A stretch of 57,190 bases of DNA from Rhodospirillaceae bacterium (GCA_050260255.1 JBLNBW010000298.1:1-57190), one strand, 5' to 3'. Numbered from the stretch's first letter, positions 19,903 through 55,647 are shown. Translations and numbers: made by a program. Notes: generated by a model not told the origin, from the letters alone.

Positions 19903-20035
19903 GGGCGCCTCCATGCGTTTACCGGAACCATATTAAAGCGTGAAGCGCGCCGTGACGAGCGCCGCGACGGGGTTACGCGACGGTACGCAATTCTGTAACC
20001 TCGCTGCAGGAGACCACTCGAGGAGGAGCCGTACC

Positions 20036-26809: not shown

Positions 26810-28213
26810 TCAGTGCGCCGTTTGGTTGGCCGCCTGCCTGCTGCCATCGCCCTTTTCCGCGCCAAGCGTGTTGATGTGGGCGACGAGGTCGCTGATGGTC
26901 TGGTCGTCGGTGAGCATCGCGGCCATCAGGGACATCTGCGCCCCGTACAGGTCCTGCGGATGCGCGCCGCGAATGCGATCGCGGAAGTGCTTCAGCTGGG
27001 TCACCATGTACCAGTCGCTCATGCCCTTCAACCTCGGCGCATTGGTTGCCGCGATGCCGCGCCCATCGGCGCCATGACACGCACTGCACGTTGCGAAGCG
27101 CTGCTCGCCGTTTCTGGCATTGCCTTTCACCGTGCTCGCGGCCGGCTTGTCGGGCAGCGTCCCGATATAGGCTACGACGTTGTCGATAGCGGTCTCATCC
27201 GGGAGCGTCGCTGCCATCGGCGCCATCACCTTGCCGTAGGTATCCTTTTCGTGCTTCCCGCGGGCGCCTTCCTTGAAATGCGCCAATTGCCGCTTGAGGT
27301 ACCAGCCGCCCTGTCCCGCGAGCTTGGGCGCGTTCATTGCGGGATTGCCCTCGCCCTGCGCACCGTGGCATGCGGCACAGGCGGCGTACAGCGCCTGACC
27401 GGCGGCGGGGTCCCCGGTGGGACGCGCCGCGGACTGCGCAAAGGTCGGCTGGCGACCGAGCCACGTCTGAAACTCGCGGTCATCTTCGACCACCATACGG
27501 CCGCGCATCGCAAAGTGAGCGACGCCGCAGAGCTCTTCGCACAGCAGATCGAAAGTCCCGGCGCGCGTCGGTGTGAACCACGCGTGGGTCACGAGGCCGG
27601 GGACGAGGTCCATCTTGACCCGCAGCTGTGCGATCGAGAAGTTATGCAGCACGTCCTTGGAGCGAAGCAGCAGCTTGATCGGCTTGCCGAGCGGCAGATG
27701 CAATTCGGGATTCGCGATCACGACGTCGTCGTGCCCGTGAGGGTCGTTTGGATTGAGACCGAACGGATTGGTGTCGCTGAAGTGCTTGGCGTCGACGGTA
27801 CCGAGCCTGCCGTCCTTCCCGGGAAAGCGATACATCCAGTGCCATTGCTGACCCAGCGCTTCGACTTCCGAAGCCTCCGCCGGCACGTCGACGAACTTCG
27901 CCCATACGAACAAACCCGGAGCCAGCATCGCCGCCACGCCGACCGCCGTCACTCCGAGCAGCCACCATTCCAGCTTCTTGTTTTCCGGCTCGTACGCCGC
28001 GCGCGCGTCCCGCCGGTAACGAAACCGGATGATGGCGAGAGCCATAAACAGGTTCACGGCTACGAAGACTATGCCCGTGACCCAGAAAGTAATTGCCACC
28101 GTGTCGTCGATCGTCCCCCAGTTCGACGCGATCGGCGTGAAATACCATGGACTCAGGAAGTGAAACAGCAGCGAGCCGGCGATCAGGACGATCAAGACGA
28201 TGGCGACATACAT
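26810..28213 (-). CDS. cytochrome c oxidase subunit II fused to a C-terminal diheme cytochrome c
   Basis: 467 aa. It has two N-terminal TM helices and the CuA site VLHNF...CEELCGVAHFAM. Two CxxCH motifs follow (CAACH, CSACH) in c4-like repeats. Confidence 0.9.
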   Translation of the reverse strand: MYVAIVLIVLIAGSLLFHFLSPWYFTPIASNWGTIDDTVAITFWVTGIVFVAVNLFMALAIIRFRYRRDARAAYEPENKKLEWWLLGVTAVGVAAMLAPGLFVWAKFVDVPAEASEVEALGQQWHWMYRFPGKDGRLGTVDAKHFSDTNPFGLNPNDPHGHDDVVIANPELHLPLGKPIKLLLRSKDVLHNFSIAQLRVKMDLVPGLVTHAWFTPTRAGTFDLLCEELCGVAHFAMRGRMVVEDDREFQTWLGRQPTFAQSAARPTGDPAAGQALYAACAACHGAQGEGNPAMNAPKLAGQGGWYLKRQLAHFKEGARGKHEKDTYGKVMAPMAATLPDETAIDNVVAYIGTLPDKPAASTVKGNARNGEQRFATCSACHGADGRGIAATNAPRLKGMSDWYMVTQLKHFRDRIRGAHPQDLYGAQMSLMAAMLTDDQTISDLVAHINTLGAEKGDGSRQAANQTAH

Positions 28214-28294
28214 GGCGGTAGCCCCGGTTCAATGGACGCGATGACGCGCGGCTCGTGGAAAGCGCGCGACAAGTCCGCAACAGCGCGGTTCGCG

Positions 28295-28798
28295 TTACCT
28301 GACGCCCCCTCCTTCGAGCCTCCAGTAAAGCCAGGCGGCAACCATGCCGAAAACCAGGTGGGCACCGAGCGTGGGCCAGCCGCGCAGGTCCGCGAGCCAG
28401 GGAAACCACCGCACCATGCCGAAAAAATTGAAGAAGTACAGCAGCGCTCCGAACACCGCGCCGGTGGCCAGCGCCCGGCCCACTCTCGCATCGAGATGCA
28501 GCGGCGCCATGATCGAAGCGAGAATCAGCCCGAATGCGATGCCCAGCACGTAGTGCACGGCGAGCGCGATCGCGACGACATGATGCTCGAAATTGAACGT
28601 CGTCCGCGCCGCATCGGTGCCGAGAATAATGGGCGCGATCATGTGCGACGTCCGCCATGGACCTCCGGGATCGACGATGCTCGACCAGATGAGATCGAGC
28701 ACCATCAATACCGCCCCGGCGGCGAACCCCGAGACCGCCGCGACGAGCCAGTTCGGCGCACGACGTTCCCAATGAAGCGTAGTGAGTGGAAGGTCCAT
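28295..28798 (-). CDS. integral membrane protein of unknown function, first gene of the oxidase operon
   Basis: Internal ATG of ORF 28295..29299 with GAAGGAGAG upstream. MDLPLTTLHWERRAPNWLVAAVSGFAAGAVLMVL... has about 4 hydrophobic helices. The upstream part of the ORF is Arg/Pro-rich junk. Confidence 0.55.
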   Translation of the reverse strand: MDLPLTTLHWERRAPNWLVAAVSGFAAGAVLMVLDLIWSSIVDPGGPWRTSHMIAPIILGTDAARTTFNFEHHVVAIALAVHYVLGIAFGLILASIMAPLHLDARVGRALATGAVFGALLYFFNFFGMVRWFPWLADLRGWPTLGAHLVFGMVAAWLYWRLEGGGVR

Positions 28799-29339
28799 AG
28801 GAATCTCTCCTTCAGCGGACGATTGCAAGCGAGGTGATGGCGGAAGCGCTGTGGCCCGTCGTGCGGGATGTGGGCGCCGACGGACGCCGCGCGCGCTGGA
28901 AAGCGGCTTCGTGTGCCGGCCGCGGGATTGCGCCGGCGTCGAGGGATAACGCGGAGGCACGATCTCACCCGCGCGCATGTCGGCGACCATGCGTGTGTCG
29001 ATGATCCGCGGCGACGCGGAATCGGTCGCCCGTCCGGCGTCGGCCGGAACGGGACTTAGCGGGTTGCTGCAGAGGCGCATGCCCCCTCCGCGCCCTGTCG
29101 GGCAATGGCGGGACAATTGTTTTTCTACACCTGATCGTGCCGCGCGACAAGCACAACGGCGGCTCCACCGCTTCAATCCAGGACAACGGATGCACGAGGC
29201 AGCGCACGCGAGGCATACAGAGCTTGGCGCGGTACAGCGGGCACGCATGGCGACCGACGGGAAATCGCACAGTGAGCGGCGAGGCACGAATTGCCCCACC
29301 CGCGCGGCGCATGCGCAAGCCGCCGCGCGGGGTCGCCGA

Positions 29340-29447
29340 CTAGTCCTGCCGGGCGGCCGACAGGTTGCCGACCGGGCCGGTGGCCGTGATGTGCAGGGCT
29401 ACGCCCAACAACGCTGCCGCACGGTACGGTCCATGGTGACGTCGCAT
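29340..29447 (-). CDS. possible 35-aa ORF
   Basis: AGGGAGG lies 6 nt upstream of the ATG. The product is MRRHHGPYRAAALLGVALHITATGPVGNLSAARQD. The only support is the strong Shine-Dalgarno sequence and a hydrophobic core. Confidence 0.2.
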   Translation of the reverse strand: MRRHHGPYRAAALLGVALHITATGPVGNLSAARQD

Positions 29448-29672
29448 GTAAGCCTCCCTGATGAGACCGCATGATGCGGCAGCGGGCAAGCGCAATCGCC
29501 CGTGAAGCATCATCGGGGCCAACGCCGAATATCAACGCCTTACGTTGGCGCAGCGCAGAAAATGTAAACGACGCCGACACCGACGGCTGGCACGCCATGC
29601 CAGGGGCATCGCCGCCGGACACAATGAAGCGGGCAGGCGCGTGCGCTTGCTATCGCGCTTCGCTTGCCTGGG

Positions 29673-29858
29673 TCAGGTATCGTCTGCGCCGTACATCGCG
29701 CGGCGTAGCAGGTGATCCACACACGAGAAACAGAGGCACACTATCGTTCCCGCCATGGCAAGTGTCAGCTTGCTGAGGAATTCGGGGCGGGCGCCGCAGC
29801 CGTGACAACAACACAGCGGAACGCAATCCTCGCTGCGCACGACTTCTACGAACGTCAT
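29673..29858 (-). CDS. possible 61-aa cysteine-rich small protein
   Basis: GGGAGAAAAAACC precedes the ATG. The product is MTFVEVVRSEDCVPLCCCHGCGARPEFLSKLTLAMAGTIVCLCFSCVDHLLRRAMYGADDT, with 8 Cys and one hydrophobic stretch. Confidence 0.3.
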   Translation of the reverse strand: MTFVEVVRSEDCVPLCCCHGCGARPEFLSKLTLAMAGTIVCLCFSCVDHLLRRAMYGADDT

Positions 29859-30345
29859 GGTTTTTTCTCCCGTCGTTGTTGACGTCTTGTTCCCGGTTGA
29901 CGAGGCAATCGCGTTGCAACCCACATGCCGCGCAGCGCGTGCGAACAGACCACGACACGCGGCGGCGCGGCTCACGGCCTACCCGCGCATGATCGGTTCT
30001 ATCTTGGGAATGAAATCGTTGGACAGCCCGGCCGCCGATGCATCGTACGCAAGCAGAACCCCGACTGTGCGGTCATTGAGTGGAACGTGCGCGGGAAATG
30101 AAGCCGTTGTCGGGGCGATACGAATTGCACGGCTCGGCCGGAATGCTGGCCGGCGTCGTGCGATGCGATGCCATCGAAGAAGTGCCGTGCGACTACGCCA
30201 CGAGCCCGGTCGACATTGCAAGCACCGTGCGAAGCACGGAAGCACGGCGTAACAAAGAGTTACTTCTTCGGTGGATATTTGGACTGAGGCAGCGCTCTAA
30301 CATTGTAGATATATCGATTTACGCGCTGGCCACGAGGAGCGACGC

Positions 30346-30840
30346 ATGAAACCAGTCATCGCTGCGGCATCCGTCGTCGCTGCAGTGGTCCTGGCAGCGA
30401 CGGGCGCCGCACGCGCCGATAGTTCGCTCGGGCATTTCGTCCCGACCACCATGCTCGTGCCCAAGCCTCCACCGCAAGCGCCGGCTGCGCCGCGTGCTGC
30501 GCCTGCGCCCCAGCACCCGCATGGGTCGGCGTCAGTGCCGCCCGGCAGGCCGTTCGCGCATCATCCGCCGGGACCGCACCCCTTCGCACATGACAGACCG
30601 TTTCATCATCACCGGCCATTTTTCGCACCCGTACCTGTCATCGTGCCGCCACCGGCTTACTACGGCTACGTTCCGCCGCCGCCCGCGTATTACGGCTACA
30701 GGCCGCCCGCCTACGTCGTTCCCCCGCCCGTGTACATCGAGCGCGACAGCGGTTACTGGTATTACTGTCCGCCGCTCGGTGCGTACTATCCGGACGTCAC
30801 GGAATGCTCCGAACCTTGGGTGCCTGTGCCGCCGAGCTGA
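30346..30840 (+). CDS. exported Pro/His/Tyr-rich protein with C-terminal YWYYC...C motif
   Basis: GAGGAG lies upstream, preceded by an AT-richer promoter-like stretch. The signal peptide is MKPVIAAASVVAAVVLAATGAARA. His-rich (HHPPGPHPFAHDRPFHHH) and PPPAYYGY repeats are present. The C-terminus is SGYWYYCPPLGAYYPDVTECSEPWVPV. Confidence 0.7.
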   Translation: MKPVIAAASVVAAVVLAATGAARADSSLGHFVPTTMLVPKPPPQAPAAPRAAPAPQHPHGSASVPPGRPFAHHPPGPHPFAHDRPFHHHRPFFAPVPVIVPPPAYYGYVPPPPAYYGYRPPAYVVPPPVYIERDSGYWYYCPPLGAYYPDVTECSEPWVPVPPS

Positions 30841-30858
30841 CCGCGGCTGCGTTGCGGT

Positions 30859-32023: not shown

Positions 32024-34207
32024 GTGCAGTTCACCGCCACGATGCTGCGCGGCGATGCCGTGCGGCAAACCACTGTCGATATTTTCTCGGGACTGCTCCT
32101 CGGTTTCGTCAGCCTCAACTACTCTCTCACTTACGGCGCGCTGATTTTCAGCGGCGCGCTGGGCCCGTTCGCTGCGCAGGGCATTGCGGCGGCGCTGCTG
32201 AGCGCCGTGTTGCTGGGCCTCATCATCGCCTGGCGCAGCACCATCCCGATCGCCATCGCGGGCCCGGAAGCCAACGTCGCCGCCGTCGTCTGTGTCATGG
32301 CCGCCTCGGCTGCGACGGATCTGCACGCCAGAGCGCTGCCCGATGCCGTAGTCGCCGACACGGTGCTTGCCGCGATTGCGGCGACATCATTCGTGGTCGG
32401 CGCGTTCCTTTACCTCCTGGGCCGCGCGCGCCGCGGGCGTATCGTTCAGTTCATTCCATATCCGGTGATGGCAGGCTTCCTAACCGGGACGGGATGCATG
32501 GTGATCATCGGCGCGCTGCGCCTCGCGACCGGAGAACAAGCGGCGCTCGCCGGAGCAAAAGCCCTCGTCGACCTGCCGGCCGCCGGGCTGCTGGCGGCAG
32601 CAATCACGCTGCTCGCCATGTTCGTCCTCGGTCGGCGGCTGAAGAAGCACTGGGTCTTTCCGGTCGCGCTTTTTCTGGGCTGCGCTTCGTTCTACGCGCT
32701 TCTCGCGTCGAGCGGCATCTCGCTCGCCGAAGCACGCGAGCGCGGCCTGCTCCTTGCGCCGCTTCATTCGACCCACTTGCCGTGGCTGGGCACCGCATCG
32801 AGCGCCGCGCGCTGGGACATCATCCTGGATTACCTGCCCGACATGCTGGCCGTGGCAGTCGTCGCGACACTGTCGATCCTCCTCAATGCGACCGGCGTCG
32901 GTCTGGCGGCCAACATGGAGGTCGATTTCAACGCGGAACTGCGTGCGGCCGGGCTAGCGAACGTCGCCGCAAGCGCGGTGTGTGGCATTCCGGGCTACAT
33001 GTCGACCGGCCGGACCCTGCTCAATTTTGGCGCCGGGGCCACGGGACGCACGAGCGGCATCGCCGCCGCGCTGTTCATACTCGTTACACTGCTCGCTCTG
33101 CCGGATGCGATTTCCTACTTCCCGGTCCCCGTACTGTTCGGGCTGCTGCTGTTCATAGGCATCATGCTGGTCGTCGAATGGGCGGGAAAATCATTGCGGC
33201 GCCTGCCGCGGTTCGAATACCTTCTGCTTCTCAGCATCGCCGCGCTGATCGTCGCCTACGGCTTCGTGAGTGCGGTACTCATCGGTGTCATCGCCGCGTG
33301 CGTGCTCTTCGTCATCAACTACGGCCGCATCACGTGCATCAAGGCCGAGTTTTCGGGCGAGGTACGCGCTTCCAAGGTCGAGCGGACGATAGAGGAAGGG
33401 CAGATCTTGAGAGAGCGCGGCTCGCTCGTCTTCGGCCTCACGCTGCAGGGATTTCTGTTCTTCGGCACGGCGAATTACATCCTCAACCGCGTGAGCGAGC
33501 GGCTGCTCACGCCGCTGCGCTATCTCGTGCTCGACCTGAAAATGGTGCAGGGCCTGGACGCGTCCGCTTCCGTCGCCTTCATCAAGCTCGCGCAGCTCTG
33601 CTCCAAGAACGACACGCGCATCGTGCTGTCTGGTCTGTCGCGCGACATGCACACGCTGCTCACGCGATCTCACGCCATCGCAGGCGACATACGCGTGCAC
33701 GCCGATGTCGACGAGGCGCTCGAATGGGTGGAGGACGAGATCATCGCGAGTGCGCGCGCCGGCACGGTGGCGAAGCCGGATCTGCGCAGCCAGCTCGCAG
33801 TGCATTTCGACGAGCGTGCGCTCGAGGTCCTGATGAGCCATATGGAAGCCGAAGCGTTCGAGGCAGGACATCATCTGTTCCGCAGAGGCGATCCCGGCGT
33901 CTGTCTGTACTTCATTGAATCGGGCCAGGTGAGGGTGTCGATCCCGACGGCGGACGGCGCACTGTTGCGGTTGCGCGCGTTCGGCCCGGGCACCATGGTC
34001 GGCGAGATGAGCCTGTATGCGCAGCTTCCCCGCACGGCCGACGTGGTCGCGGAACGACCGACGACGGTGCGCAAGCTCGCGTTCGAAGACGTGCGACGAC
34101 TGGAAACGGAAGACGCGTCGGTCGCAATTCAGTTCCATCACTACGTCATCCGCGTGCTCGCGTCGCGGCTTGCGGTATCGAACGAGGATTTCCGCTCGCT
34201 GCTTTGA
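32024..34207 (+). CDS. SulP/SLC26-family anion transporter with STAS and cyclic-nucleotide-binding domains
   Basis: 727 aa with a GTG start. The polytopic N-half reads SLNYSLTYGALIFSG...GIPGYMSTGRT. A STAS-like block follows (LVFGLTLQGFLFFGTA...LVLDLKMVQGLDASA). The C-terminal cNMP-binding motif reads FRRGDPGVCLYFIESGQVRV...FGPGTMVGEMSL...RTADVVA. Confidence 0.9.
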   Translation: MQFTATMLRGDAVRQTTVDIFSGLLLGFVSLNYSLTYGALIFSGALGPFAAQGIAAALLSAVLLGLIIAWRSTIPIAIAGPEANVAAVVCVMAASAATDLHARALPDAVVADTVLAAIAATSFVVGAFLYLLGRARRGRIVQFIPYPVMAGFLTGTGCMVIIGALRLATGEQAALAGAKALVDLPAAGLLAAAITLLAMFVLGRRLKKHWVFPVALFLGCASFYALLASSGISLAEARERGLLLAPLHSTHLPWLGTASSAARWDIILDYLPDMLAVAVVATLSILLNATGVGLAANMEVDFNAELRAAGLANVAASAVCGIPGYMSTGRTLLNFGAGATGRTSGIAAALFILVTLLALPDAISYFPVPVLFGLLLFIGIMLVVEWAGKSLRRLPRFEYLLLLSIAALIVAYGFVSAVLIGVIAACVLFVINYGRITCIKAEFSGEVRASKVERTIEEGQILRERGSLVFGLTLQGFLFFGTANYILNRVSERLLTPLRYLVLDLKMVQGLDASASVAFIKLAQLCSKNDTRIVLSGLSRDMHTLLTRSHAIAGDIRVHADVDEALEWVEDEIIASARAGTVAKPDLRSQLAVHFDERALEVLMSHMEAEAFEAGHHLFRRGDPGVCLYFIESGQVRVSIPTADGALLRLRAFGPGTMVGEMSLYAQLPRTADVVAERPTTVRKLAFEDVRRLETEDASVAIQFHHYVIRVLASRLAVSNEDFRSLL

Positions 34208-34419
34208 GGGTCTCCGCAGCATGCCGGCTTGACCGGGGCTATCCGGCCGCTGCGCGGGTTTCGTATGAACGGTCGCTGCGGCCTGAGGGAAGAAAAATGC
34301 CGGCGAGGCATCGCGTTTGCACGTCTTTCGAAGTGCCCCGTCAACCCGCATGCCGTCGGCCCCGAAATCCGCATCCACAGCGCGGTTGATTGCGGCGGAA
34401 GGCGGCTCATAATGGGCTG

Positions 34420-35466
34420 ATGAACGTGCACCCGAGCGTCATTGACGCCATTGGCAACACCCCGCTCATCCGCTTGCGCCGCGCATCGGAAGCGACCGGC
34501 TGCGCGATTTACGGCAAGGCGGAGTTCCTCAACCCCGGCGGCTCGGTGAAAGACCGCGCGGCGCTCTTCATCATCCGCGACGCCGAAGAGCGCGGCCTGT
34601 TGCGCCCCGGCGGCGTGATCGTGGAAGGCACGGCGGGCAATACCGGCATCGGCCTGGCACTCGTGGCCAACGCGCGCGGCTATCGTACCGTGATCGTCAT
34701 CCCGGAAACACAAAGCCAGGAGAAGAAGGATGCGCTGCGGCAGAACGGCGCGGACCTGCGCGAGGTGCCGGCCGTGCCGTACGCGAATGCCAACAACTAC
34801 GTGAAGGTATCGGGACGCCTCGCGGAAGCGCTTGCGAAGGTCGAGCCGGCCGGCGCGGTGTGGGCGAACCAGTTCGACAACGTCGCGAACCGCCGCGCCC
34901 ATTACGAGACGACGGGACCCGAAATCTGGCAGCAGACCGAGGGCAGAATCGACGGCTTCATATGCGCCGTAGGCACGGGCGGCACGCTCGCCGGTGTCGG
35001 CATGTTTCTCAAGGAGCGCAAGCCGGGCGTCGTGATCGGCCTCGCCGATCCCATGGGAGCTGCGCTCTACAGCTGGTACAAGCATGGCGAACTGAAAGCG
35101 GAAGGCAGCTCGATCACGGAAGGCATAGGGCAGAGCCGCATCACGCGCAATCTGGAAGGCGCGCCGGTGGACGAAGCGTGGCAGATTCCGGACGACGAAG
35201 CGTTGAACGTCCTGTTCGACCTGCTGCGGCATGAAGGTCTGCCGATGGGCACGTCGACCGGCATCAATGTGGCCGGCGCCATCCGTCTCGCTCGCAAGCT
35301 TGGCCCCGGTCACACCATCGTTACCGTGCTCGCCGACGGCGCACAGCGCTATGCGAGCCGGCTGTTCAATCCGGCATTCCTGCGCTCGAAAAATCTTCCC
35401 GTGCCCGAATGGCTCGAGGAGCGCGCAGCCGTGTCGGTTGCGACACCCCTGCTCGATGCCGCCTGA
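34420..35466 (+). CDS. PLP-dependent cysteine synthase / cystathionine beta-synthase family protein
   Basis: Internal ATG. IGNTPLIRL...KAEFLNPGGSVKDRAA (PLP lysine)...EGTAGNTGIGLA...GTGGTLAGV are present. Confidence 0.85.
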   Translation: MNVHPSVIDAIGNTPLIRLRRASEATGCAIYGKAEFLNPGGSVKDRAALFIIRDAEERGLLRPGGVIVEGTAGNTGIGLALVANARGYRTVIVIPETQSQEKKDALRQNGADLREVPAVPYANANNYVKVSGRLAEALAKVEPAGAVWANQFDNVANRRAHYETTGPEIWQQTEGRIDGFICAVGTGGTLAGVGMFLKERKPGVVIGLADPMGAALYSWYKHGELKAEGSSITEGIGQSRITRNLEGAPVDEAWQIPDDEALNVLFDLLRHEGLPMGTSTGINVAGAIRLARKLGPGHTIVTVLADGAQRYASRLFNPAFLRSKNLPVPEWLEERAAVSVATPLLDAA

Positions 35467-39672: not shown

Positions 39673-40647
39673 TCAATCGACTTCGACCCTCGCTTCCTTG
39701 GCGACGCGCGCCCACTTCGCGAGCTCGCTTCTGATATAAGCGGCGAGATCTTCCGGCGAGCTGTTGATCGGCTCTATGCCTGCGTTCGCGAAGAGCTTCG
39801 TCATGTCCGGATGCGTTGCGGCGCGGACGATTTCGTCATGCAGCTTGGCGACGATGTCCCGCGGCGTACCAGCCGGCGCCAGGATCGCATACCACACGCC
39901 GGCGTCGTATCCCGGCAACGCAGCTTCGGCTATGGTCGGAATGTCGACGCCAGTGAGCCGCTTGGACGTCGTCACGGCCAGGGCGCGCACGCGTCCGGCG
40001 TCGATGTGCTGCCTGCACGAAAGGTACGTCGCGAACAGCACCTGCAGGTTGCCTGCGATGAGGTCCACGAGCGCAGGCCCTGCGCCCTTGTAGGGCACAT
40101 GGACCATTTTCACCCCGGCCATGCTGTTGAGCAGCTCGTTGGCGAGATGTGCACCGCTGCCGTTGCCCGCTGAGCCGTAAGCGAGCTGACCCGGCTTACG
40201 GCGTGCGAGCGCAATCAGCTCCTTCACGTTCTTTGCGGGCACCGACGGATGCACGAGCAGCGTATAGGGTCCGGCGCCGAGAAGGGTGATGGGCTGGAAG
40301 TCGCGTACAGGATCGTACGGCAATTTCCGGTAGAGGCTGGGATTGACCGCGAGTTGCGCCGTGAGCGCGAGCACCAGCGTATAGCCGTCCGGCGGTGACT
40401 TCGCGACGATTTCCATTCCGATGTTGCCGTTCGCGCCGCCGCGGTTGTCGATGATCACTTGCTGACGCAAGTTGTCGGTGAGGCGCTGCGCGAGCGGACG
40501 TGCGAGGGTGTCGGTGCCGCCGCCTGGTGGATAGGGTATGACCACGCGAATCGGTTTATTCGGATAACCTTGAGCAAGAGCCGGTATCGAAACCGCCATC
40601 GCACAAGCACACACGATCTTGGCGAAGATGGCTTCAAGCCGATCCAT
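39673..40647 (-). CDS. Bug-family (TctC-like) substrate-binding protein (core gene)
   Basis: Start at MDRLEAIFAKIVCACAMAVSIPALAQGYPNKPIRVVIPYPPGGGTDT...VPYKGAGPA...AGTPRDIV gives the 324 aa typical of the family. The ORF continues in frame upstream to 40860 through a duplicated 5' end. Confidence 0.8.
   Translation of the reverse strand: MDRLEAIFAKIVCACAMAVSIPALAQGYPNKPIRVVIPYPPGGGTDTLARPLAQRLTDNLRQQVIIDNRGGANGNIGMEIVAKSPPDGYTLVLALTAQLAVNPSLYRKLPYDPVRDFQPITLLGAGPYTLLVHPSVPAKNVKELIALARRKPGQLAYGSAGNGSGAHLANELLNSMAGVKMVHVPYKGAGPALVDLIAGNLQVLFATYLSCRQHIDAGRVRALAVTTSKRLTGVDIPTIAEAALPGYDAGVWYAILAPAGTPRDIVAKLHDEIVRAATHPDMTKLFANAGIEPINSSPEDLAAYIRSELAKWARVAKEARVEVD
40520..40624. repeat. direct repeat copy A (Bug gene 5' end)
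   Basis: Hand alignment with 40712..40816 gives about 88 of 105 identical positions at an offset of exactly 192 bp. Confidence 0.85.
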
Positions 40648-40860
40648 CAGCCCCGGCGGCCGCACCCCGTCTCCGCCCCAACACCAACCCCTTCGCCGAG
40701 ATCCGGTGCGCCCGCCTGGCGGATAGGGTATGACCACGCGAATCGGTTTATGTGGATATGTTTGGGCAAGAGCCGGTATCGCTACCGCCATCGCGGCACC
40801 GCATACGATCTTAACGGTGCAGACCGATGCCGAAAGCAACGCCTTCATCGTCGTCATCAC
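40648..40860 (-). pseudogene. duplicated 5' end (RBS, start, signal peptide, first mature residues) of a Bug gene, fused in frame to the core gene
   Basis: It encodes MMTTMKALLSASVCTVKIVCGAAMAVAIPALAQTYPHKPIRVVIPYPPGG, then 21 junk-like residues. A strong GGAGGAAAGG lies upstream of 40860. Confidence 0.55.
40712..40816. repeat. direct repeat copy B (Bug gene 5' end)
   Basis: See copy A. The shared core is CCGCCTGGyGGATAGGGTATGACCACGCGAATCGGTTTAT...GCAAGAGCCGGTATCG...ACCGCCATCGC. Confidence 0.85.
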
Positions 40861-42738: not shown

Positions 42739-43566
42739 ATGACCGCTTTGCGCTATGCGGCAGCCGTCCTGTGCAGCGCTTGGCTTGTTTTGTCCAGCGC
42801 GCCGACACCGGCACAGGATGTACGAGCGAAAACCGAATACGAGCCGTACGTGGGACAGCACGGCAAGGACGTCGTCTGGGTCCCCACGCCGCAGTCGCTG
42901 GTGAATCGCATGCTGAACCTTGCCCGGCTGCGGCGCGACGACTACCTCATCGATCTCGGTGCAGGCGACGGACGTACGGTCATTTCGGCCGCGAAGCGCG
43001 GAACACGCGCGCTGGGCATCGAATACAACGCGGACATGGTCGCGCTCGCGAGGCGCAACGCCGAGCAGGCCGGCGTCGCGGACAAAGCGCAGTTCCGTGA
43101 AGCCGACCTGTTTCAGACTGACCTGTCGCAGGCAACCGTCATCACGATGTTCCTGCTGCCCGAAATCAACGTGAAGCTTCGCCCGAGCCTGCTCAAGCTC
43201 AAGCCGGGAACGCGGGTGGTCTCCAATTCCTTTCGCATGGGAAACTGGAAGCCGGACGCGATGACGACCGCCACGAAAGATTGCACGGACTACTGCACCG
43301 CATACCTTTGGGTCGTACCGGCGCCCGTCGCAGGCACCTGGGATACGCCGCACGGCAGGCTCACGCTCGAGCAGCGCTTTCAGTACGTGACCGGCACGTT
43401 GCACGGCCGCGACGGCGCTGTGGCGGCGAAAGGCAAGTTGAGCGGCGCGCATATCGCGCTCACCGCGGGGGCGACGAAGTATGAAGGGAGAGTGTCGGGT
43501 AATACGATACACGGCACCGCTACGGCATCTGGCGATGCGACGCAGTGGCTCGCCACGAAGCGCTGA
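42739..43566 (+). CDS. class I SAM-dependent methyltransferase-like protein with N-terminal signal peptide and C-terminal beta-rich domain
   Basis: The N-terminus is MTALRYAAAVLCSAWLVLSSAPTPAQD. SAM motif I is YLIDLGAGDGRTVISAA, followed by GIEYN...FREADLF...VITMFLLP. Confidence 0.8.
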   Translation: MTALRYAAAVLCSAWLVLSSAPTPAQDVRAKTEYEPYVGQHGKDVVWVPTPQSLVNRMLNLARLRRDDYLIDLGAGDGRTVISAAKRGTRALGIEYNADMVALARRNAEQAGVADKAQFREADLFQTDLSQATVITMFLLPEINVKLRPSLLKLKPGTRVVSNSFRMGNWKPDAMTTATKDCTDYCTAYLWVVPAPVAGTWDTPHGRLTLEQRFQYVTGTLHGRDGAVAAKGKLSGAHIALTAGATKYEGRVSGNTIHGTATASGDATQWLATKR

Positions 43567-43622
43567 GGCGATGCTGCGCGGCGTACGCCACGCTCCGGCA
43601 TCCCGCTTGCACCGTTGATCGG

Positions 43623-44426
43623 ATGGTCGACAAGGAATTCGTCTTCGTCCTCGGCGCACGCGATCCGGAAATGCGTGAAATCGCCGAGGTGCTCAAAGCG
43701 GACAACCGGAGCTTCGTTCATGCGGCGAAGGACGATCGCGCCGTCACGCCGCGCACCGCGTACGAGGCAGACGCCGTAGTGCACCTGTCGCGCGCGGGGC
43801 GCCCGTTGCCCGCGGTCCTGCCTCCGCAAACGCCCGCGGTATTCGTCGAATGCACGCTCGCGGGCCATGCACCTAAACTGCGCGTGGACCATCACAATCC
43901 TGGAGATCCGGGTTTCGCCATGCCGCCCGAGCGGTATATGGAAGGCGCATCGATCGGCCAGACGCTGCACCTGCTCGAACGCGAGCCCACCGGCACGCAA
44001 CGGCTGCTTGCGGCCGCGGACCACTGCCTGACAGCGGCTTACCAGGGACAGTGTCCGGGCATCGATCCCAAGGAGCTCCTCTTCCTGCGCGCCTCGTGGC
44101 GCGCACGCGTCACCGGCCGGAGCTTCGGCGACGTGATGGACGGCATACTGGATTCGGCTAAGCGCGTGCGACGGCACTACGATTCCGAATTCCGCGAAAG
44201 CGTGTTCACCGATCCCACCGAAATCCCGCCCGATCTCGCGGAAGGCGCCGCTTACGCCGGCGTGCCGGTGCGCTACCGCGAGCTGCTGCCCGATGGCGAG
44301 CTCAAGGAGATGCTCAAAGGCGCAGCCCCGGAACACATCGAGCGCTTCATGCACGCGCATCGCACGCGCGGCCGCAACGTCTACGGCAACCCGTATCGGG
44401 GCTACGCAGGCGCGTACCTGCCGTAG
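43623..44426 (+). CDS. hypothetical protein (contains VDHHNPGDPG motif)
   Basis: Internal ATG of ORF 43545..44426. The 267-aa product has normal composition (MVDKEFVFVLGARDPEMREIAEVLK...). No family recognised. Confidence 0.55.
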   Translation: MVDKEFVFVLGARDPEMREIAEVLKADNRSFVHAAKDDRAVTPRTAYEADAVVHLSRAGRPLPAVLPPQTPAVFVECTLAGHAPKLRVDHHNPGDPGFAMPPERYMEGASIGQTLHLLEREPTGTQRLLAAADHCLTAAYQGQCPGIDPKELLFLRASWRARVTGRSFGDVMDGILDSAKRVRRHYDSEFRESVFTDPTEIPPDLAEGAAYAGVPVRYRELLPDGELKEMLKGAAPEHIERFMHAHRTRGRNVYGNPYRGYAGAYLP

Positions 44427-44557
44427 CCATCACATCACCCCGTTTGCTGGGCCTCGCAGCATCGCCGTCCGCGGTATGGCGGACCTCGCAATGCCATCCA
44501 TCGTAATTCCATCGCGGCGACGGTGCATAATGCCGCGTGACGAAAAGGAGGCGCGGC

Positions 44558-45892
44558 GTGGGGACGAACATTCTTTTGATACTTGCGGACAACCTGGGCT
44601 GGGGCGAGCTCGGTTGCTACGGCGGCGGCGCGCTGCGCGGGGCACCGACGCCGCGCATCGACGCGCTCGCCGGCGAAGGCGTGCGCTTTCTCAACTTCAA
44701 CGTCGAAAGCGATTGCGTGCCGACGCGCTCCGCGCTGATGACCGGACGCCATCCGATACGCACCGGCGCGCTGCAGTCCGTCCCCGCCGGGCTGCCGCAA
44801 GGCCTGATCCCGTGGGAAATCACGCTCGGTGAGCTCATGCAGCACCGCGGTTATGCGACCGCGTGCTTCGGCAAATGGCATCTCGGCGACCGGCCCGGCC
44901 GATATCCGCACGAGCGCGGCTTCGACGAGTGGTACGGCATACCGCGCACGACGAACGAAAGCATGTTCACGAGCTCGCCGGGCTACGATGCCAACGCGAC
45001 GCCGCTGCCCTACGTCATGTCGGGCAAGCGCGGGGAGCCGGCGAAGGAGCTGCACGTCTACGACCTCGACGCGCGCAGGCGCATCGACGGCGAGCTCACG
45101 GCGCACGCCATCGATTTCATGACGCGGCAAACCGGAGCGGGCAAGCCGTTCTTCTGCTACGTGCCGCTCACCCAACTGCACTATCCGACGCTGCCACATC
45201 GTGATTTCGCAGGAAGGACGGGCGCGGGCGATTTCGCCGACGCGATGAGCGAAATGGATCATCGGGTGGGCCAGATGCTCGACGCCGTCGAATCACTCGG
45301 CATTGCGAACGACACGCTGGTGCTCTTCGGCAGCGACAACGGACCGGAATTTCGCAGGCCGTGGCGCGGCACTGCGGGCCCGTGGACCGGCACTTATCAC
45401 ACCGCGATGGAAGGCGCGCTGCGCGTTCCGTTCATGGCGCGCTGGCCGGGCCGCATACCCGCAGGCGGTGTGACGAACGAGATCGTGCATATCACCGACC
45501 TCTATGTGACGCTCGCACGTGTAGCGGGCGCCGAAGTGCCGCGCGATCGGCCGATCGACGGCGTGGACCAGCTTGACTTCTTCCTCGGCAGAAAGCCAAA
45601 GTCGAATCGCGAAGGCTTCGTGTACTACATCAAGCAGGAGCTGCGCGCGGCAAAGTGGCGCGACTGGAAGATGCACATGGTATGGGAGCCCGAGCCCAAC
45701 CAGGGTCCGAATCACCTCGAAACGCCGTGGCTCTTCAATCTCACACGCGATCCGAAGGAGGAGACCGACGTCGCGACGGAGGCAAGCTGGGTGCGCACGC
45801 CGATGCGTCGCATGATCCACGCGTTCACGGAAACGCTCAAAGCACACCCGCCGATACCGCCCGGCGCGCCGGACGACTTCCGCCCCACGTAA
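44558..45892 (+). CDS. Cys-type sulfatase (arylsulfatase family), no signal peptide
   Basis: GTG start 6 nt after AAAGGAGG; alternative ATG at 44537. NILLILADNLGWGELGCYGG...ESDCVPTRSALMTGR carries the C-x-P-x-R formylglycine motif. GKWHLG is also present. Confidence 0.85.
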   Translation: MGTNILLILADNLGWGELGCYGGGALRGAPTPRIDALAGEGVRFLNFNVESDCVPTRSALMTGRHPIRTGALQSVPAGLPQGLIPWEITLGELMQHRGYATACFGKWHLGDRPGRYPHERGFDEWYGIPRTTNESMFTSSPGYDANATPLPYVMSGKRGEPAKELHVYDLDARRRIDGELTAHAIDFMTRQTGAGKPFFCYVPLTQLHYPTLPHRDFAGRTGAGDFADAMSEMDHRVGQMLDAVESLGIANDTLVLFGSDNGPEFRRPWRGTAGPWTGTYHTAMEGALRVPFMARWPGRIPAGGVTNEIVHITDLYVTLARVAGAEVPRDRPIDGVDQLDFFLGRKPKSNREGFVYYIKQELRAAKWRDWKMHMVWEPEPNQGPNHLETPWLFNLTRDPKEETDVATEASWVRTPMRRMIHAFTETLKAHPPIPPGAPDDFRPT

Positions 45893-45900
45893 GAACGGCG

Positions 45901-46500
45901 TCAGCGCGCGTTACGCGCGTGCGCGACCAATTGCCGCAGATGCTCGACCGGCCGCACGCCGGGAAGCGCGACGGTCCGGTTCGCGACGAAGGCGGGCACG
46001 CCGGTGAGTACCATCTCGTGCGCAAGCCGTTCGTCGTCGAGAACGGACTGCGTGTATGCGCCCGTCTTCAGCGCCTCGCGCAACGTGTCACCTTCGAGTC
46101 CCAGCGATTGCGCCAGATCGGTCAGGACCTCGACCTGCCCGATGTTCCGGCCGTGCTCGAAAAAGGCATGGAACACCGCCTCGTTGTAATCGTCGAACCG
46201 TTCCTGCGCGCGTGCCCAGTGCGCCGCCTCGTGCGCAAGGCGCGAGCGCGGCTGCACGGGCGGCAGCTTCATGGTGATGCCCATTTGCGCCGCCATGGGG
46301 TAGACCGAGGCGTCCCACACGCGATGCAGATATTCGCCGTCCGGATCGAGCGTAGGCGCAGGCTCGGGACGCAGCTCGTATGCGCGCCAAATGACGTGCA
46401 GATCGGGATCGCTGCGCGCAAGCTCTGTGACGGCCGGCTCCGCCAGCCAACAGAACGGTCAAACGTAGTCCGAGAAGATTTCCAGCGTGACGGTACTCAT
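45901..46500 (-). CDS. DsbA/FrnE-like thiol:disulfide oxidoreductase with in-frame UGA at the first Cys of CxxC (selenocysteine candidate, or nonsense pseudogene)
   Basis: The ORF track shows only 45901..46320. Extending upstream in the same frame gives ATG(46500) MSTVTLEIFSDYV-TGA(46461..46459)-PFCWLAEPAVTELARSDPDLHVIWRAYELRPEP..., continuous with the listed ORF. DsbA-like proteins (PF01323) begin ...I.SD.VCPFCY... Confidence 0.6.
46424..46454 (-). promoter_or_regulatory. stem-loop immediately 3' of the in-frame UGA (bSECIS-like)
   Basis: The mRNA reads UGA CCGU UCUGU-U-GGCUGGC-GGA-GCCGGCC-GUC-ACAGA. It forms a 5-bp lower stem, an internal loop, a 7-bp upper stem (one G-U) and a G-rich apical loop. 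Confidence 0.45.
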
Positions 46501-46686: not shown

Positions 46687-47124
46687 TTAATGCATCACCT
46701 CGAGCAGCTCGATCTGGAACACCAGCGTCGCATTCGGCGGGATCACGCCGCCGGCGCCGCGCTCGCCGTATGCTATGGAAGAAGGACAGGTTAGCTTCGC
46801 CTTGCCGCCCGTCTTCATGCGCTGCACGCCCTCGGTCCAGCACGGGATAACGCGGTTCAGCGGAAACTCGGCGGGGCGCCCGCGTTTGTACGAGCTGTCG
46901 AACTCGCGCCCATCGGGAAACGTGCCCTGATAGTGCACGCGCACGGTGTCGCTCGCCGACGGACTCTCGCCGCTGCCTTCCTTGAGCGAACGGTACACGA
47001 GACCGCTCTTCGTCACTACTGCGCCGGGTTCCTTCGCGGCCGTTGCCGCCACGTCTGATTGGGCCCAGGCAGCCGACACACCCAGCGCCAGCATCACGGT
47101 CAACACACTCGTTTTCACTTGCAT
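46687..47124 (-). CDS. exported FKBP-type peptidyl-prolyl cis-trans isomerase
   Basis: 145 aa. The signal peptide is MQVKTSVLTVMLALGVSAAWA. VRVHYQGTFPDGREFDSS...FPLNRVIPCWTEG...PSSIAYGERGAGGVIPPNATLVFQIELL is FKBP sequence. Confidence 0.9.
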   Translation of the reverse strand: MQVKTSVLTVMLALGVSAAWAQSDVAATAAKEPGAVVTKSGLVYRSLKEGSGESPSASDTVRVHYQGTFPDGREFDSSYKRGRPAEFPLNRVIPCWTEGVQRMKTGGKAKLTCPSSIAYGERGAGGVIPPNATLVFQIELLEVMH

Positions 47125-47235: not shown

Positions 47236-50200
47236 TCAATCGACGGCGAGGAACAGCGCCACAGCCGCCGCCAGCGCCGCCGGTATGCCGTAGCGCTCGA
47301 AGTTCGACACCGAATCACCGACGATGATCTCGACCGGCAGTGGCGTGAGTTCCAGCACGCGGTTAGTCACCGAATCCTCGACAAGGCGCGTGAGCGAGTT
47401 CTTGCGGGCGGTGCTCATCACGATCTGGTCGCAGCGCAGCCGCCGCGCAGTGTGCGTGATGCACTTGGCGCGATCGCCGATCTCCGTGTGCACGGAGTAC
47501 GGTATGCCGAACCTGTCGAGCATCTGGCGCGCCGGCTCGAGCGCCTTCTCCGCGGCGGCACGATAGTAGTCCGCGCGGTTCCTGCGCGGCACGAAGCGTG
47601 CGATGCGGCTCGTGAGCGGCGTCTGGACGTTGAGCAGATGGACCTGCATCGTCGTATCGTTCATGAACTGCTTGATGACGTGCCTCACCGCCAACTCGGA
47701 GTTGGGCGAGCCGTCGACCGGAATCAGCACTTTTTGCATGGCATTCCGTCCTGTAGAAGTCATGAAGCCCAACTCGGCCGCGAATCGGTGCATCGCGGTC
47801 GCCCTTTGTGCCTTGCGCGCCTGCTGCGCCCCTCCCCCGGCCGCCCTGCGCGCGAAGTACAGCTTGAGGAGCTCCATCGCCGCCGGCGCGGCGAAAAAGA
47901 ACGGCAGCATGAGCAGCCAGTCGTCTGCGCCAAGCGGCACCGTATCGAAGAACGGCTGGAAGAAAGGCACGTAGACGACCATCATCACGAGCAGGAACGA
48001 CACGCCTACGGCCCATACCATCCAGCGGTTGGAGGTGAGTCCTATGGCGAAGATGCTACGGTATTCGGACCTCGCGGTGAATGCGCGTATCAGCTCCGAA
48101 CCGCACAGCGTCACGAACGCAATGGTCTGCGCGGCTTCGAGGTGGCCCGGATAGCGCTGCAGCGCGAGGAAGAACACGGTCAGTATGGCGACGGCGTCGA
48201 CCAGACCGACGATGGCTATGCCGAGCGCCATGTCGCGATTGATGACGTGCTCCGACGCCGGTCTGGGCGGGCGCTTCATGATGTCCGGATCGCCTTTCTC
48301 CAGCCCGAGGGCGAGCGCGGGCGCGCCGTCGCTCACGAGATTGAGCCACAAGAGCTGCACCGGCCGCAGCGGAATCGGCATACCGGCCAGCATGGCACCG
48401 AACACGATCAGGATTTCGCCGATGTTGCAGGCGAGCAGGAAGTACACGAACTTGCGGATATTCGAGTAGATGATGCGTCCCTGCTCGATCGCCGCCACGA
48501 TGCTCGCGAAGTTGTCATCGGTGAGAACCATGTCGGCGGTCTGCTTGGCGACATCCGTGCCGGTGATGCCCATCGCGACACCGATGTCCGCGCGCTTGAG
48601 CGCCGGCGCATCGTTCACGCCATCCCCCGTCATCGCGACGACGTGCCCTCTCGACTTGAGCGCTTCCACGATGCGTGTCTTGTGCTGGGGCGACACGCGG
48701 CAGCACACGTCGAGCCTGTGCGCCTGCGCCGCGAGCGCTTCGTCGCTCATCTGCTCGATCTCCGGTCCGGTCAGGACGAGACCTTCGGGCGTGCGCAGCC
48801 CGATGTCGCGCGCGATGGCTTCGGCCGTGTCCTTGTAGTCGCCGGTCACCATGATGCTCTTCAGTCCGGCTCCCCGCGCCACCTTGAGCGCCTCGATCGC
48901 TTCCGCGCGCGGCGGATCGATCATGCCCAGCAGCCCGACGAACACGAGGTCCTTCTCTATCGTGTCCGGGGCCACCTTTTCGGGCCGCGCAGCAAGCGGA
49001 CGATAAGCAACGGCCAGCACGCGCAGCGCATTGCTCGCCATGTCGTGGTTATGCTCGAGGATTTCCGCGCGCATCTTCGCCGTGAGCGGAACGGACTCGC
49101 CGTTGTCGGAGCGGCGAGCGCAAAGATCGAGGATCACATCGGGTGCGCCTTTCACGAACGCGACCACCGGCGGATAGCTTACGCCTGAAGCGAAGGCGTG
49201 CCCATCGCCTGGCTCGAACGTGTGGATGGTGGTCATGCGCTTCCTGTCCGAGTCGAAAGGTATCTCCTGGACCCGGGGCAGCAGCTTTTCCAATTCCTCG
49301 CGCACGCAGCCGCTTTTCGCCGCCGCCACGACCAGCGCGCCCTCCGTCGGATCGCCAACGATGCGCCACGACCGCTTGCCGGCTTCGTCGCACGTTTCCT
49401 CCAGCTTTGCGTCGTTGCAGATGAGTGCCCCGTGCAGCAGCAGCTGCGCGTCGGCATCCTTGCGCGGATCGAACGGCTCGGCGCCGATGAAAAACTGCCC
49501 CAGCGGGCTGTAGCCCTCTCCGGTGATGCGCAGCCGCTTGCCCCCGGCCCAGCCCTGCACGACGGTCATCTCGTTCTGCGTCAGCGTGCCGGTCTTGTCC
49601 GAGCACACCACCGTGGCGCAGCCCAGCGTCTCCACCGCAGGGAGCTTACGGATCAGCGCGTGGTGCCTGATCATGCGCTGCATGCCGAGCGCAAGACAGA
49701 TGGTGACGATCGCCGGCAGGCCCTCGGGCACGGCCGCGATCGCAAGGCTCACCGCGGTCATGAACAGATTGACGATATCCTTTTTCTCGGCGCGGAGGTA
49801 CTCCACGAGCCCGCCCTGCAGCGCGGACGCGAGCTGCGTATCGCGCAGCAGCCCGTAGACGAACACCAGCGCGCAGATCGCGAGGCATGCCGTGCCCAGC
49901 ACCTTGCCCAGATGCTCGAGCTTGCGTTGCAGCGGCGTCGGCTCCGCCTCGAACGACTGGATCATTTCCGCGATGAGACCGATCTGCGTGTGCATCCCCG
50001 TCGCCGTTGCGATGCCTTTGCCGCGCCCGTAAGTGATGAGGCTCCCCATGAACGCGCTGTTACTGCGGTCGCCCAGCGGTATGTCGCTCGCCAGCACGGC
50101 ACCCGCCTGCTTTTCGACCACGACCGACTCGCCGGTGAGCGACGCTTCGTCGATCTTCAAGTTCACGCTTTCCGTGAGCCGCAGGTCGGCCGGCACGTAA

Positions 50201-50640
50201 TTGCCCGCTTCGAGCAGCACGACATCTCCCGGGACGATGGCCCGCCCCGGCACCGTGAGCTGGCGGCCGTCCCGTATCACCTGCGCGTTGGGCGCGGACA
50301 TCTTCTGCAGCGCTTCGAGCGCCTGCTCGGCCTTGGACTCCTGCACCACGCCAACGACCGCGTTGAGCATGACAATCACCATGATCGCTATGGAATCGAC
50401 GTACTCTCCGAGCAGCAGCGATACGACGGCGGCGACGACCAGAATGATGACGAGATAATTGTTGAACTGCTCCCACAAGAGCGCGAGAAACCCGGGCCGG
50501 GCACGCTCGGTGAGCTCGTTCGGGCCGTACGTCCGCAGCCGGGCTTCGGCCTCCTCGCTGGTAAGGCCGTGCATGAGATCGGTTCTCATGCTCGCGACGA
50601 CTTCGGCGACCGGCGCGCCATGCGCATGCGTGTCGTGCAT
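47236..50640 (-). CDS. P2-type (Ca2+/Mn2+-like) cation-transporting P-type ATPase continuous with a C-terminal USP domain
   Basis: Start at MHDTHAHG with GGGAGAG upstream. [42 protein letters not shown] and [11 protein letters not shown] are present. After TM10 there is no stop; the frame continues into [21 protein letters not shown]... (USP fold, 47236..47739), which ends in a hydrophobic tail. Confidence 0.9.
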
Positions 50641-50764
50641 TGCGACTCTCCCGGTGAAGACGACAAGCGCAGTATGGTCACGCGCGACGCGCGTGAAAAT
50701 TCGAAAGATGCAACGCTCGCCGTTACGAATGCGCAACTTCGCGCACGAATCGCCAAGCCTGCAT

Positions 50765-50777
50765 TTACGATTCGTAA
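50765..50777. promoter_or_regulatory. TTACGA-T-TCGTAA perfect inverted repeat (T-N11-A LysR-type box candidate)
   Basis: Lies in the ATPase/LysR divergent intergenic region. A related half-site, TTACGAAT, sits about 40 bp to the left (about 50722). Confidence 0.4.
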
Positions 50778-50851
50778 CCGATCGCGCCTTGACGGGCGGC
50801 ACACCGCGGTGCTAAAAAGTTTGCGTGCTCGGCGTATCGCCGGCACGACCC

Positions 50852-54762: not shown

Positions 54763-55647
54763 ATGCAAGTCACCGCAGAACAAGTCGGTTCCGCCAGCAC
54801 CGTCCGCGTCGTCCCGCTTTCGGCACATATAGGCGCCGAGATCGCGGGCGTCGATCTGGCGCACCTCACCGACGCGCAGTTCAAGATCATCTACGACGCC
54901 TGGATGGACCATCTCGTCCTGCGTTTCCGCGGCCAGAATCTCACCAAGGAAGACCTGCTCGCGTTCAGCCGCCGCTTCGGCGAGTTCGACAAAGCGCCGA
55001 TCAACGTCAAGGGCGAGCCGTGGATAGCCGGCTATCCCCATCTCGCCGTGATGTCCAACATCGTGGAAAACGGCCAGCTGCTCGGCAGCCTTGGCTACGG
55101 CGAAGCGGTGTGGCACACCGACATGTCGTACAACGACGTCACGCCCTCGGCCGCGCTGCTGTACGCCCTCGAAGTGACGAAAACCGGCGGCGAAACCGGT
55201 TTCCTCAGCATGTACCACGCGTACGAGACGCTGCCCGACGATCTCAAGTCGGCCATCGAAGGCCGGCAGATCAAGCATGACGCCAGCCGCAACAGCGCCG
55301 GCGAGCTGCGGAAAGGCTACAGGGACGTCACCGACCCGCGGGAAGCGCCCGGAGCGGTGCACCCGATCGTCGTGCGCCACCCCGTCACACAACGTCGCGC
55401 ACTGTTTCTTGGGCGCCGGCCGCTCTCCTACATCATGGGCATGCCGCTCGAGGAGAGCGAAGCGCTGCTCGATCGACTCTGGGCGCACGCAACGCGCGAG
55501 GAGTTCGCGTGGTTCCAGAAATGGAGCGTCGGCGATTTGATGATGTGGGACAACCGCTGCGCGATGCACAAGCGCACCGCATTCGATCCGAACGAGCGTC
55601 GCTACATGCTGCGAACGCAAGTCAAAGGCGTGCGTCCCGTCGCCTGA
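54763..55647 (+). CDS. TauD/TfdA-family Fe(II)/2-oxoglutarate dioxygenase
   Basis: GAGGAGGAG lies upstream. HIGAEIAGVDL...VWHTDMSY (HxD)...GGETGF...MWDNRCAMHKR are present. Confidence 0.9.
   Translation: MQVTAEQVGSASTVRVVPLSAHIGAEIAGVDLAHLTDAQFKIIYDAWMDHLVLRFRGQNLTKEDLLAFSRRFGEFDKAPINVKGEPWIAGYPHLAVMSNIVENGQLLGSLGYGEAVWHTDMSYNDVTPSAALLYALEVTKTGGETGFLSMYHAYETLPDDLKSAIEGRQIKHDASRNSAGELRKGYRDVTDPREAPGAVHPIVVRHPVTQRRALFLGRRPLSYIMGMPLEESEALLDRLWAHATREEFAWFQKWSVGDLMMWDNRCAMHKRTAFDPNERRYMLRTQVKGVRPVA

Follow-up and report, generated by a model that had tools for sequence, protein, structure and literature searches.

The 57,190 nt stretch of DNA analysed here (the window) very probably carries a genuine, intact selenocysteine (Sec)-encoding gene of the DsbA/FrnE-like type, the ~22 kDa product of which would have the redox motif U14-P-F-C17. 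The original prediction, which placed Sec at the first position of a UxxC motif, is supported by the pairing of Sec and Cys among relatives, by selection on the codons upstream of the UGA, by a hairpin downstream of it and by the FrnE fold of the protein.

The gene occupies a frame of 199 codons on the minus strand, starting from an ATG at 46500, and its sole interruption is a TGA at 46461..46459. Read on that strand the bases are ATG (46500) AGT ACC GTC ACG CTG GAA ATC TTC TCG GAC TAC GTT TGA (46461..46459) CCG TTC TGT TGG, after which the frame stays open until a TGA at 45903..45901. The translation is MSTVTLEIFSDYV*PFCWLAEPAV..., in which the asterisk is the in-frame TGA (codon 14). The mechanical ORF list holds 45901..46320 only, a 139 aa ORF in the same frame with a GTG start 180 nt downstream of the ATG, and the public gene call on the same DNA (P0009) is shorter than this, at 127 aa. 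The ORF track was thus correctly described in the original prediction as starting at 46320 (139 aa), and all coordinates of the 180 nt upstream extension to the ATG at 46500, broken only by the TGA at 46461..46459, were verified. Start codons in relatives likewise lie 11-13 codons before the TGA. The stretch from ATG to TGA is conserved in L062, a contig from sequencing run SRR24035586 whose protein is 82% identical; the DNA 5′ of the ATG could not be aligned. The features of the gene are as follows.

45901..46500, minus strand: selenoprotein CDS, 199 codons including Sec14, then the terminal TGA at 45903..45901; predicted DsbA-fold, FrnE-type thiol/selenol-disulfide oxidoreductase with matches to Pfam DSBA and to FrnE (5cnw)
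46498..46500, minus strand: ATG start, 13 codons before the UGA
46459..46461, minus strand: in-frame UGA, predicted U14 (Sec), N-terminal nucleophile of U-P-F-C; TGA or Cys in homologues, aligned with FrnE Cys22, identical in L060, L061 and L062
46450..46452, minus strand: TGT, Cys17, predicted resolving partner of U14 and the only Cys of the protein; invariant in alignment A2
46431..46449, minus strand: conserved core of the putative SECIS, 8-bp stem and GGA loop, within codons 18-24 (W-L-A-E-P-A-V)
46422..46456, minus strand: full minimum-free-energy hairpin, 15 bp with a 2-nt bulge, from single-sequence folding
45994..45999, minus strand: codons of Val168-Pro169, an invariant V-P pair (54 sequences) at the expected position of the cis-Pro loop, just before strand beta3 of the model
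45901..46320, minus strand: truncated mechanical ORF, 139 aa, without the active site, which the 127-aa P0009 also lacks

Two independent assemblies, L060 (SRR24035587) and L061 (SRR24035588), match the window at 100% identity over 3,749 and 2,826 bases respectively, the ATG and TGA included, which rules out a sequencing error at the TGA. In L062, the gene sits in the same neighbourhood and has TGA at the same codon.

Relatives of the gene were collected by a comparative scan with one genome per species, which returned 59 loci, and the codon aligned to the first Cys could be read in 57 of them. As to whether orthologues carry Cys or TGA at this codon, a question raised with the original prediction, TGA was found in 47 of the 57 and TGC or TGT in the other 10, a distribution that rules out a chance in-frame TGA at the CxxC. 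Alternation of Sec and Cys at a single codon is the classic signature by which selenoprotein families are defined (PMC1088965, PMC9312934). The TGA forms span about ten phyla. Within the Acidobacteriota they come from many Pyrinomonadaceae, Chloracidobacterium and Thermoanaerobaculia; further forms come from Gemmatimonadota, Betaproteobacteria/Burkholderiales (L003, L022), Binatia, Desulfobacterales and other "delta" lineages, Nitrospinaceae, Nitrospirae, Verrucomicrobiia and Rubrobacter. All of them keep the peptide (L/I)E(I/V)FSDY(V/L) before the TGA. The best 120 protein clusters from a large protein database comprised 51 with a full-length CxxC and ~69 disguised TGA forms, of which 33 begin at "LAEP" right after the motif, ~31 begin slightly further on and 5 have W at the site. 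In a rough neighbour-joining tree, drawn without support values, the Cys forms were scattered inside the clade and the topology ignored taxonomy, which suggests a history of Sec/Cys switching and horizontal spread.

Three of the related copies are damaged. The copy at 6001..6105 of L056, an Acidobacteriota metagenome-assembled genome (MAG), keeps the TGA, reads PFGW instead of PFCW and meets a stop after ~35 codons, and in L048 and L053 the gene breaks off after 142 and 106 codons, respectively. These may reflect decay or assembly errors, and illustrate loss of function in the selenoprotein family.

A search for a SECIS-like element after the UGA, proposed along with the original prediction, revealed a hairpin both by folding and in the alignment. 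It starts 5 nt after the UGA, its upper part reads U GGCUGGC [GGA] GCCGGCC G (46449..46431), and the first nucleotide of the apical GGA loop (46441..46439) lies 17 nt after the UGA. For the 47 distinct TGA forms, standard pairs filled 94.7% of alignment cells of the 8-bp stem, compared with 14-50% in a control in which the 3′ arm was slid by 1-3 columns. The folding energy in a 46-nt context was -22.4 kcal/mol (z = -2.6, matched by 4 of 200 shuffles); with 71 nt of context the z score was only -0.65, which is unremarkable. The upper-stem fold is common to the window, L062 and L001, and is not formed by two Cys forms folded alone. L062 has the predicted lower stem of 7 bp as well, L001 has it with an interruption, and the family consensus lacks it, RNAalifold retaining the upper stem only. 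Two registers 3 nt apart, one from RNAalifold (loop GGCGG) and one from single-sequence folding (loop GGA), fit about equally well. By the published definition, a bacterial SECIS is a stable stem-loop that closely follows the UGA and has a small apical loop with a G in it (PMC1088965), and the putative hairpin fits this description.

As the hairpin sequence is nearly constant among the TGA forms, no genuine covariation was detected in it, and 294 of 500 shuffle-control trials scored as high as the real alignment. Synonymous-site constraint was therefore tested instead. In the TGA forms, the hairpin codons are close to frozen: 38 of 41 use GCG for Ala20 (H = 0.38), 38 of 42 use GAG for Glu21 and 39 of 40 use GCC for Ala23 (H = 0.17), compared with H = 1.24-1.88 for other conserved Ala columns and 1.78 for pooled Ala. 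These codons have the lowest codon entropy among the conserved codons of the gene (Mann-Whitney p = 0.0003 versus the rest of the gene). Six close Cys forms vary at the same codons, with GCG/GCC/ACA/GGC and GAG/GAA. Part of the nucleotide conservation at the hairpin could come from the conserved peptide PFCWLAEPA. Searches against Rfam gave no match, either for the whole window at gathering thresholds or for the 171-nt region at E <= 10. This says little, since no general bacterial SECIS model was seen in that database.

For comparison, the experimentally defined element of fdhF was taken from E. coli genomes, where it matched at 100% and carries a selenocysteine annotation, and folded alongside. 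In both genes the hairpin follows directly on the UGA within the coding sequence, and the apical loop begins with GG, at 18 nt after the UGA in fdhF and 17 nt in the window. The two differ in the loop, which is GGUC in fdhF and the 3-nt GGA in the window. Moreover, the putative element of the window has no obvious bulged U in the upper stem, and there is no sequence similarity between them.

The codons before the UGA behave as coding sequence. The eight codons immediately upstream (LEIFSDYV) occur in 36 DNA versions among 42 intact TGA forms and encode only 13 peptides, and pairwise codon differences over them amount to 2706 synonymous versus 1416 nonsynonymous. Between the window and L062 (dS = 0.44), codons 2-13 differ by 5.5 synonymous and 2.5 nonsynonymous changes (dN 0.098, dS 1.33), giving a dN/dS of ~0.07 upstream of the TGA, based on 8 substitutions only, versus 0.26 in the rest of the gene. 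These numbers are small, but their direction is clear, and by this measure selection preserves the coding capacity of the 13 codons before the UGA, so that the check on purifying selection proposed at the outset comes out in favour of Sec. Such maintenance makes sense only if translation goes on through the UGA. Moreover, despite its divergence from the window, L062 has retained the upstream peptide, the TGA and the hairpin. Selection has therefore acted on the gene ever since the two lineages separated, which argues for decoding of the UGA in the host lineage.

The main residual risk for the Sec reading is that the Sec machinery was not seen in the window: Pfam annotation of ~44 window ORFs and an ARAGORN search for tRNA-Sec revealed no selA, selB, selC or selD in the 57 kb, and the same ~44 ORFs include no other selenoprotein gene. 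ARAGORN likewise found no tRNA-Sec near the gene in 60 of the fetched loci (L001-L060), and two relatives that were inspected had no sel genes within ~10 kb of the selenoprotein gene. These results would fit a gene from a genuine selenoprotein family whose host has lost the Sec machinery or lacks selenium, a recently silenced relic from which only a 13-residue peptide is made, and the damaged copies in L048, L053 and L056 lend this some plausibility. However, the window gene has an intact frame, UxxC motif and hairpin and has kept all invariant residues, the syntenic copy in L062 shows the constraint described above on both sides of the TGA, and Sec decoding is common in Betaproteobacteria (PMC1794560). 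We therefore consider a silenced relic improbable.

A nonsense mutation of TGC or TGT to TGA, which would make the gene a pseudogene, was put forward as the alternative in the original prediction. A single nucleotide change does turn a Cys codon into TGA, and gene callers give nothing but a truncated ORF here. However, TGA is the majority state at this exact codon across ~ten phyla, for which independent nonsense mutations cannot be the source, and a pseudogene would not last so long. Purifying selection on the upstream codons also speaks against it, as does the conserved hairpin with frozen synonymous sites, which goes with the TGA forms only. On these sequence comparisons a pseudogene is effectively refuted, and we give it only a very slight probability.

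TGA is an ordinary stop in 18 of 34 window genes, making it the commonest, and also ends the selenoprotein gene itself. The genetic code is therefore standard and TGA is not reassigned. A scan of the window for a second gene with a coding-like in-frame TGA found only the selenoprotein gene. Five database proteins (P0002, P0004, P0006, P0008 and P0013) read ...FSDYVWPFCW..., with Trp at the Sec codon; they come from short contigs that were evidently translated with a TGA=Trp code, so the selenoprotein gene misled the code assignment. It is thus highly improbable that the UGA is decoded as one of the standard amino acids, whether by near-cognate read-through (Trp/Cys) or under a reassigned code, as the five W entries that would favour this stem from the gene callers' table, Trp at the catalytic position would abolish redox chemistry, the homologues alternate with Cys only, and a conserved downstream hairpin is the signature of SelB-dependent decoding.

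When the stop is replaced by Cys, the 199-aa product has a match to Pfam DSBA (PF01323) that covers residues 5-191 and profile positions 1-189 of 191 (E = 3.6e-35). The domain spans the UGA, and in the HMMER alignment the stop falls on Cys22 of the C22-P-W-C25 active site of FrnE, as expected from the original proposal that the UGA replaces the nucleophilic Cys of a DsbA-like active-site block. Among solved structures, the nearest in sequence is that of D. radiodurans FrnE (5cnw, E = 2e-19), followed by SCO1869. A structure was modelled with AF2 for the Cys homologue P0003, which is 66% identical to the window protein, from a 54-sequence alignment (pLDDT 94.2, pTM 0.90). The order of elements in the model is beta1, alpha1 with CxxC at its N-terminus, beta2, an inserted helical region, beta3-beta4 and a final helix at the C-terminus, and the predicted architecture is that of DsbA, a thioredoxin fold with an inserted helical domain. 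The conserved V-P pair precedes beta3; in thioredoxin-fold enzymes the cis-Pro loop packs against the active site. The top PDB matches of the model in Foldseek were FrnE (TM 0.84-0.86) and SCO1869 (TM 0.87), and next came further cytosolic DsbA-like proteins, namely HCCA isomerase, kappa-class GST, YjbH and DsbM, with periplasmic DsbAs lower at TM ~0.6-0.7. FrnE is thus the closest structure by both sequence and fold, in agreement with the FrnE-like identity first proposed. Matches to NCBIfam were all sub-threshold, and no model there recognises the family.

FrnE of D. radiodurans (DR_0659; PDB 5cnw, 5cp1 and others) is a cytoplasmic disulfide reductase/isomerase of the DsbA family. The window protein resembles it in the absence of a signal peptide, for which a DSBA domain starting at residue 5 leaves no room, in the C-P-(W/F)-C pattern at the start of alpha1 and in the conserved V-P pair, and is accordingly predicted from its sequence to be cytoplasmic. 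It differs from FrnE in having Sec, as predicted, in place of Cys22, in an identity of only ~27-29% and, with Cys17 as the sole Cys of its 199 aa, in lacking the C-terminal CxxxxC tail. This tail helps to regenerate the active site of FrnE, but is also missing from the FrnE of S. roseofulvus and of D. maricopensis (PMC8945050) and so is not strictly defining. Periplasmic DsbA of the E. coli type has a Sec-type signal peptide, a C-P-H-C motif and DsbB as its partner, whereas the window protein has no signal peptide, a predicted UPFC motif and a lower fold similarity to these enzymes. The scan of the window genes recognised no dsbB.

From the established bacterial Sec pathway, a ribosome reaching the UGA at 46461..46459 would be expected to insert Sec and not terminate. 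In the host organism this decoding would depend on SelB, and we assume that the genome is competent for Sec. The nucleotides of the hairpin would double as codons for W-L-A-E-P-A-V, the start of active-site helix alpha1. Once made, the product would cycle between a selenol/thiol and a selenenylsulfide (U14-C17), and by analogy with D. radiodurans FrnE, which uses Cys, it would reduce or isomerise disulfides of partner proteins. The D. radiodurans enzyme has disulfide isomerase and reductase activity in vitro, and a mutant is sensitive to cadmium and diamide (PMC8945050). As the CxxxxC tail is absent, recycling of the window protein would have to use another reductant. We infer that the protein acts as a cytoplasmic disulfide reductase or isomerase through the U14-C17 selenenylsulfide.

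DsbA-like selenoproteins with UxxC are a real, published family, as stated in the original prediction (PMC1088965, PMC1794560, PMC5029168, PMC13188914). A DsbA-like protein (COG2761, UxxC) with a predicted SECIS was described in 2005 as a new selenoprotein family from the Sargasso Sea metagenome (PMC1088965), and complete genomes later yielded it too, among them those of Anaeromyxobacter dehalogenans, Desulfovibrio desulfuricans and Desulfotomaculum reducens (PMC1794560). A count in 2016 gave 45 DsbA-like genes in 41 organisms from >5,200 genomes (PMC5029168), and reviews from 2022 and 2026 list the family as PF01323, UxxC (PMC9312934, PMC13188914). The window gene shares with these proteins ('DsbA-like protein form 1'; COG2761/PF01323) the Pfam domain, the UGA at the first CxxC position, the existence of Cys homologues and a stem-loop with a small, G-containing apical loop directly after the UGA. 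Every sequence-level hallmark of the family is thus found in it, and by its sequence it is an ordinary, mis-annotated member. It is neither a new system nor a new mechanism, as both its family and the way of decoding were known already.

The differences lie in the hosts. Published DsbA-like selenoproteins were first reported in anaerobic Deltaproteobacteria and Clostridia, whereas the window comes from an uncultured Burkholderiales bacterium and the nearest relatives of its gene are mostly from soil Acidobacteriota and other MAG lineages; such relatives are common in soil metagenome-assembled genomes. The Betaproteobacterial host class is mildly new, as is a clade that appears to be predominantly Sec-containing. 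A wider reading, which we offer tentatively and with somewhat less than even confidence, is that the clade is a FrnE-type lineage with a Sec majority (UGA in ~60-80% of sampled members), that horizontal transfer accounts for part of its spread through soil lineages, most of them aerobic (Pyrinomonadaceae and other Acidobacteriota, Gemmatimonadota, Binatia and Burkholderiales), that its SECIS is almost invariant at the nucleotide level owing to its overlap with the active-site helix, and that Sec has repeatedly reverted to Cys. A 2006 survey saw FdhA as the sole selenoprotein family in Betaproteobacteria (PMC1794560). If the Sec-majority reading is true, the DsbA-like proteins would be a second family in this class, where FdhA was thought to be the only one. 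The window gene by itself adds a predicted thiol/selenol oxidoreductase to the short list of Burkholderiales selenoproteins. The practical value lies in the annotation, as the gene is called as a fragment of 127-139 aa without its active site and no NCBIfam or Rfam model would rescue it. The same error is present in dozens of database entries, some of them wrongly translated with TGA=Trp.

The window is a complete NCBI contig, for which a plasmid BLAST search gave a 48-bp hit only. Its affiliation with Burkholderiales is consistent with its COX1, whose 90%-identity cluster includes Ramlibacter monticola and several Burkholderiales MAGs, and its multiple TctC/Bug receptors also fit this order. 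The upstream neighbour of the selenoprotein gene is an FKBP-type isomerase gene (46687..47124, minus strand) 186 nt before it, and the selenoprotein gene converges on a sulfatase gene (44537..45892, plus strand). This context is common to L062, which shares the sulfatase, methyltransferase and cupin genes, but is not conserved in distant relatives and hence offers no functional clue.

Several other observations were made on the window. The FKBP protein has a signal-peptide-like N-terminus, and upstream of its gene lies 47236..50802 (minus strand), encoding a P-type (E1-E2) cation ATPase fused to a C-terminal Usp domain; the ATPase-Usp, FKBP and selenoprotein genes are all on one strand. A published list of bacterial selenoproteins includes a family of cation-transporting E1-E2 ATPases (PMC5029168), but no in-frame TGA was found in the ATPase-Usp gene of the window. 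The ~2.6 kb at 28214..30858, between COX2 (26810..28213, minus strand) and a TctC gene, has an ordinary GC content of 0.59-0.68 and contains no ORF with coding-like third-position GC, its five candidate ORFs being without Pfam match. A TctC-family ORF at 39673..40860 (minus strand) has a tandemly duplicated N-terminal segment, in which a signal-peptide-like stretch followed by PALAQ(T/G)YP(H/N)KPIRVVIPYPPGG occurs twice in nearly identical form; the duplication could be real, or the start could have been mis-chosen. Two coding-like ORFs of 293 and 349 aa, at 43545..44426 (plus strand) and 1658..2707 (minus strand) respectively, have no Pfam or NCBIfam match. The former is apparently conserved in L062, which has a 267-aa gene, also without Pfam match, at the equivalent position. 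Lastly, the contig is rich in genes of sulfur metabolism, which, speculatively, might also handle selenium analogues. These are as follows.

18838..19914, minus strand: metallo-beta-lactamase-rhodanese fusion
32024..34207, plus strand: SulP sulfate permease with STAS and cNMP-binding domains
34390..35466, plus strand: PLP-dependent (cysteine-synthase-like) enzyme
44537..45892, plus strand: sulfatase
54763..55647, plus strand: TauD dioxygenase
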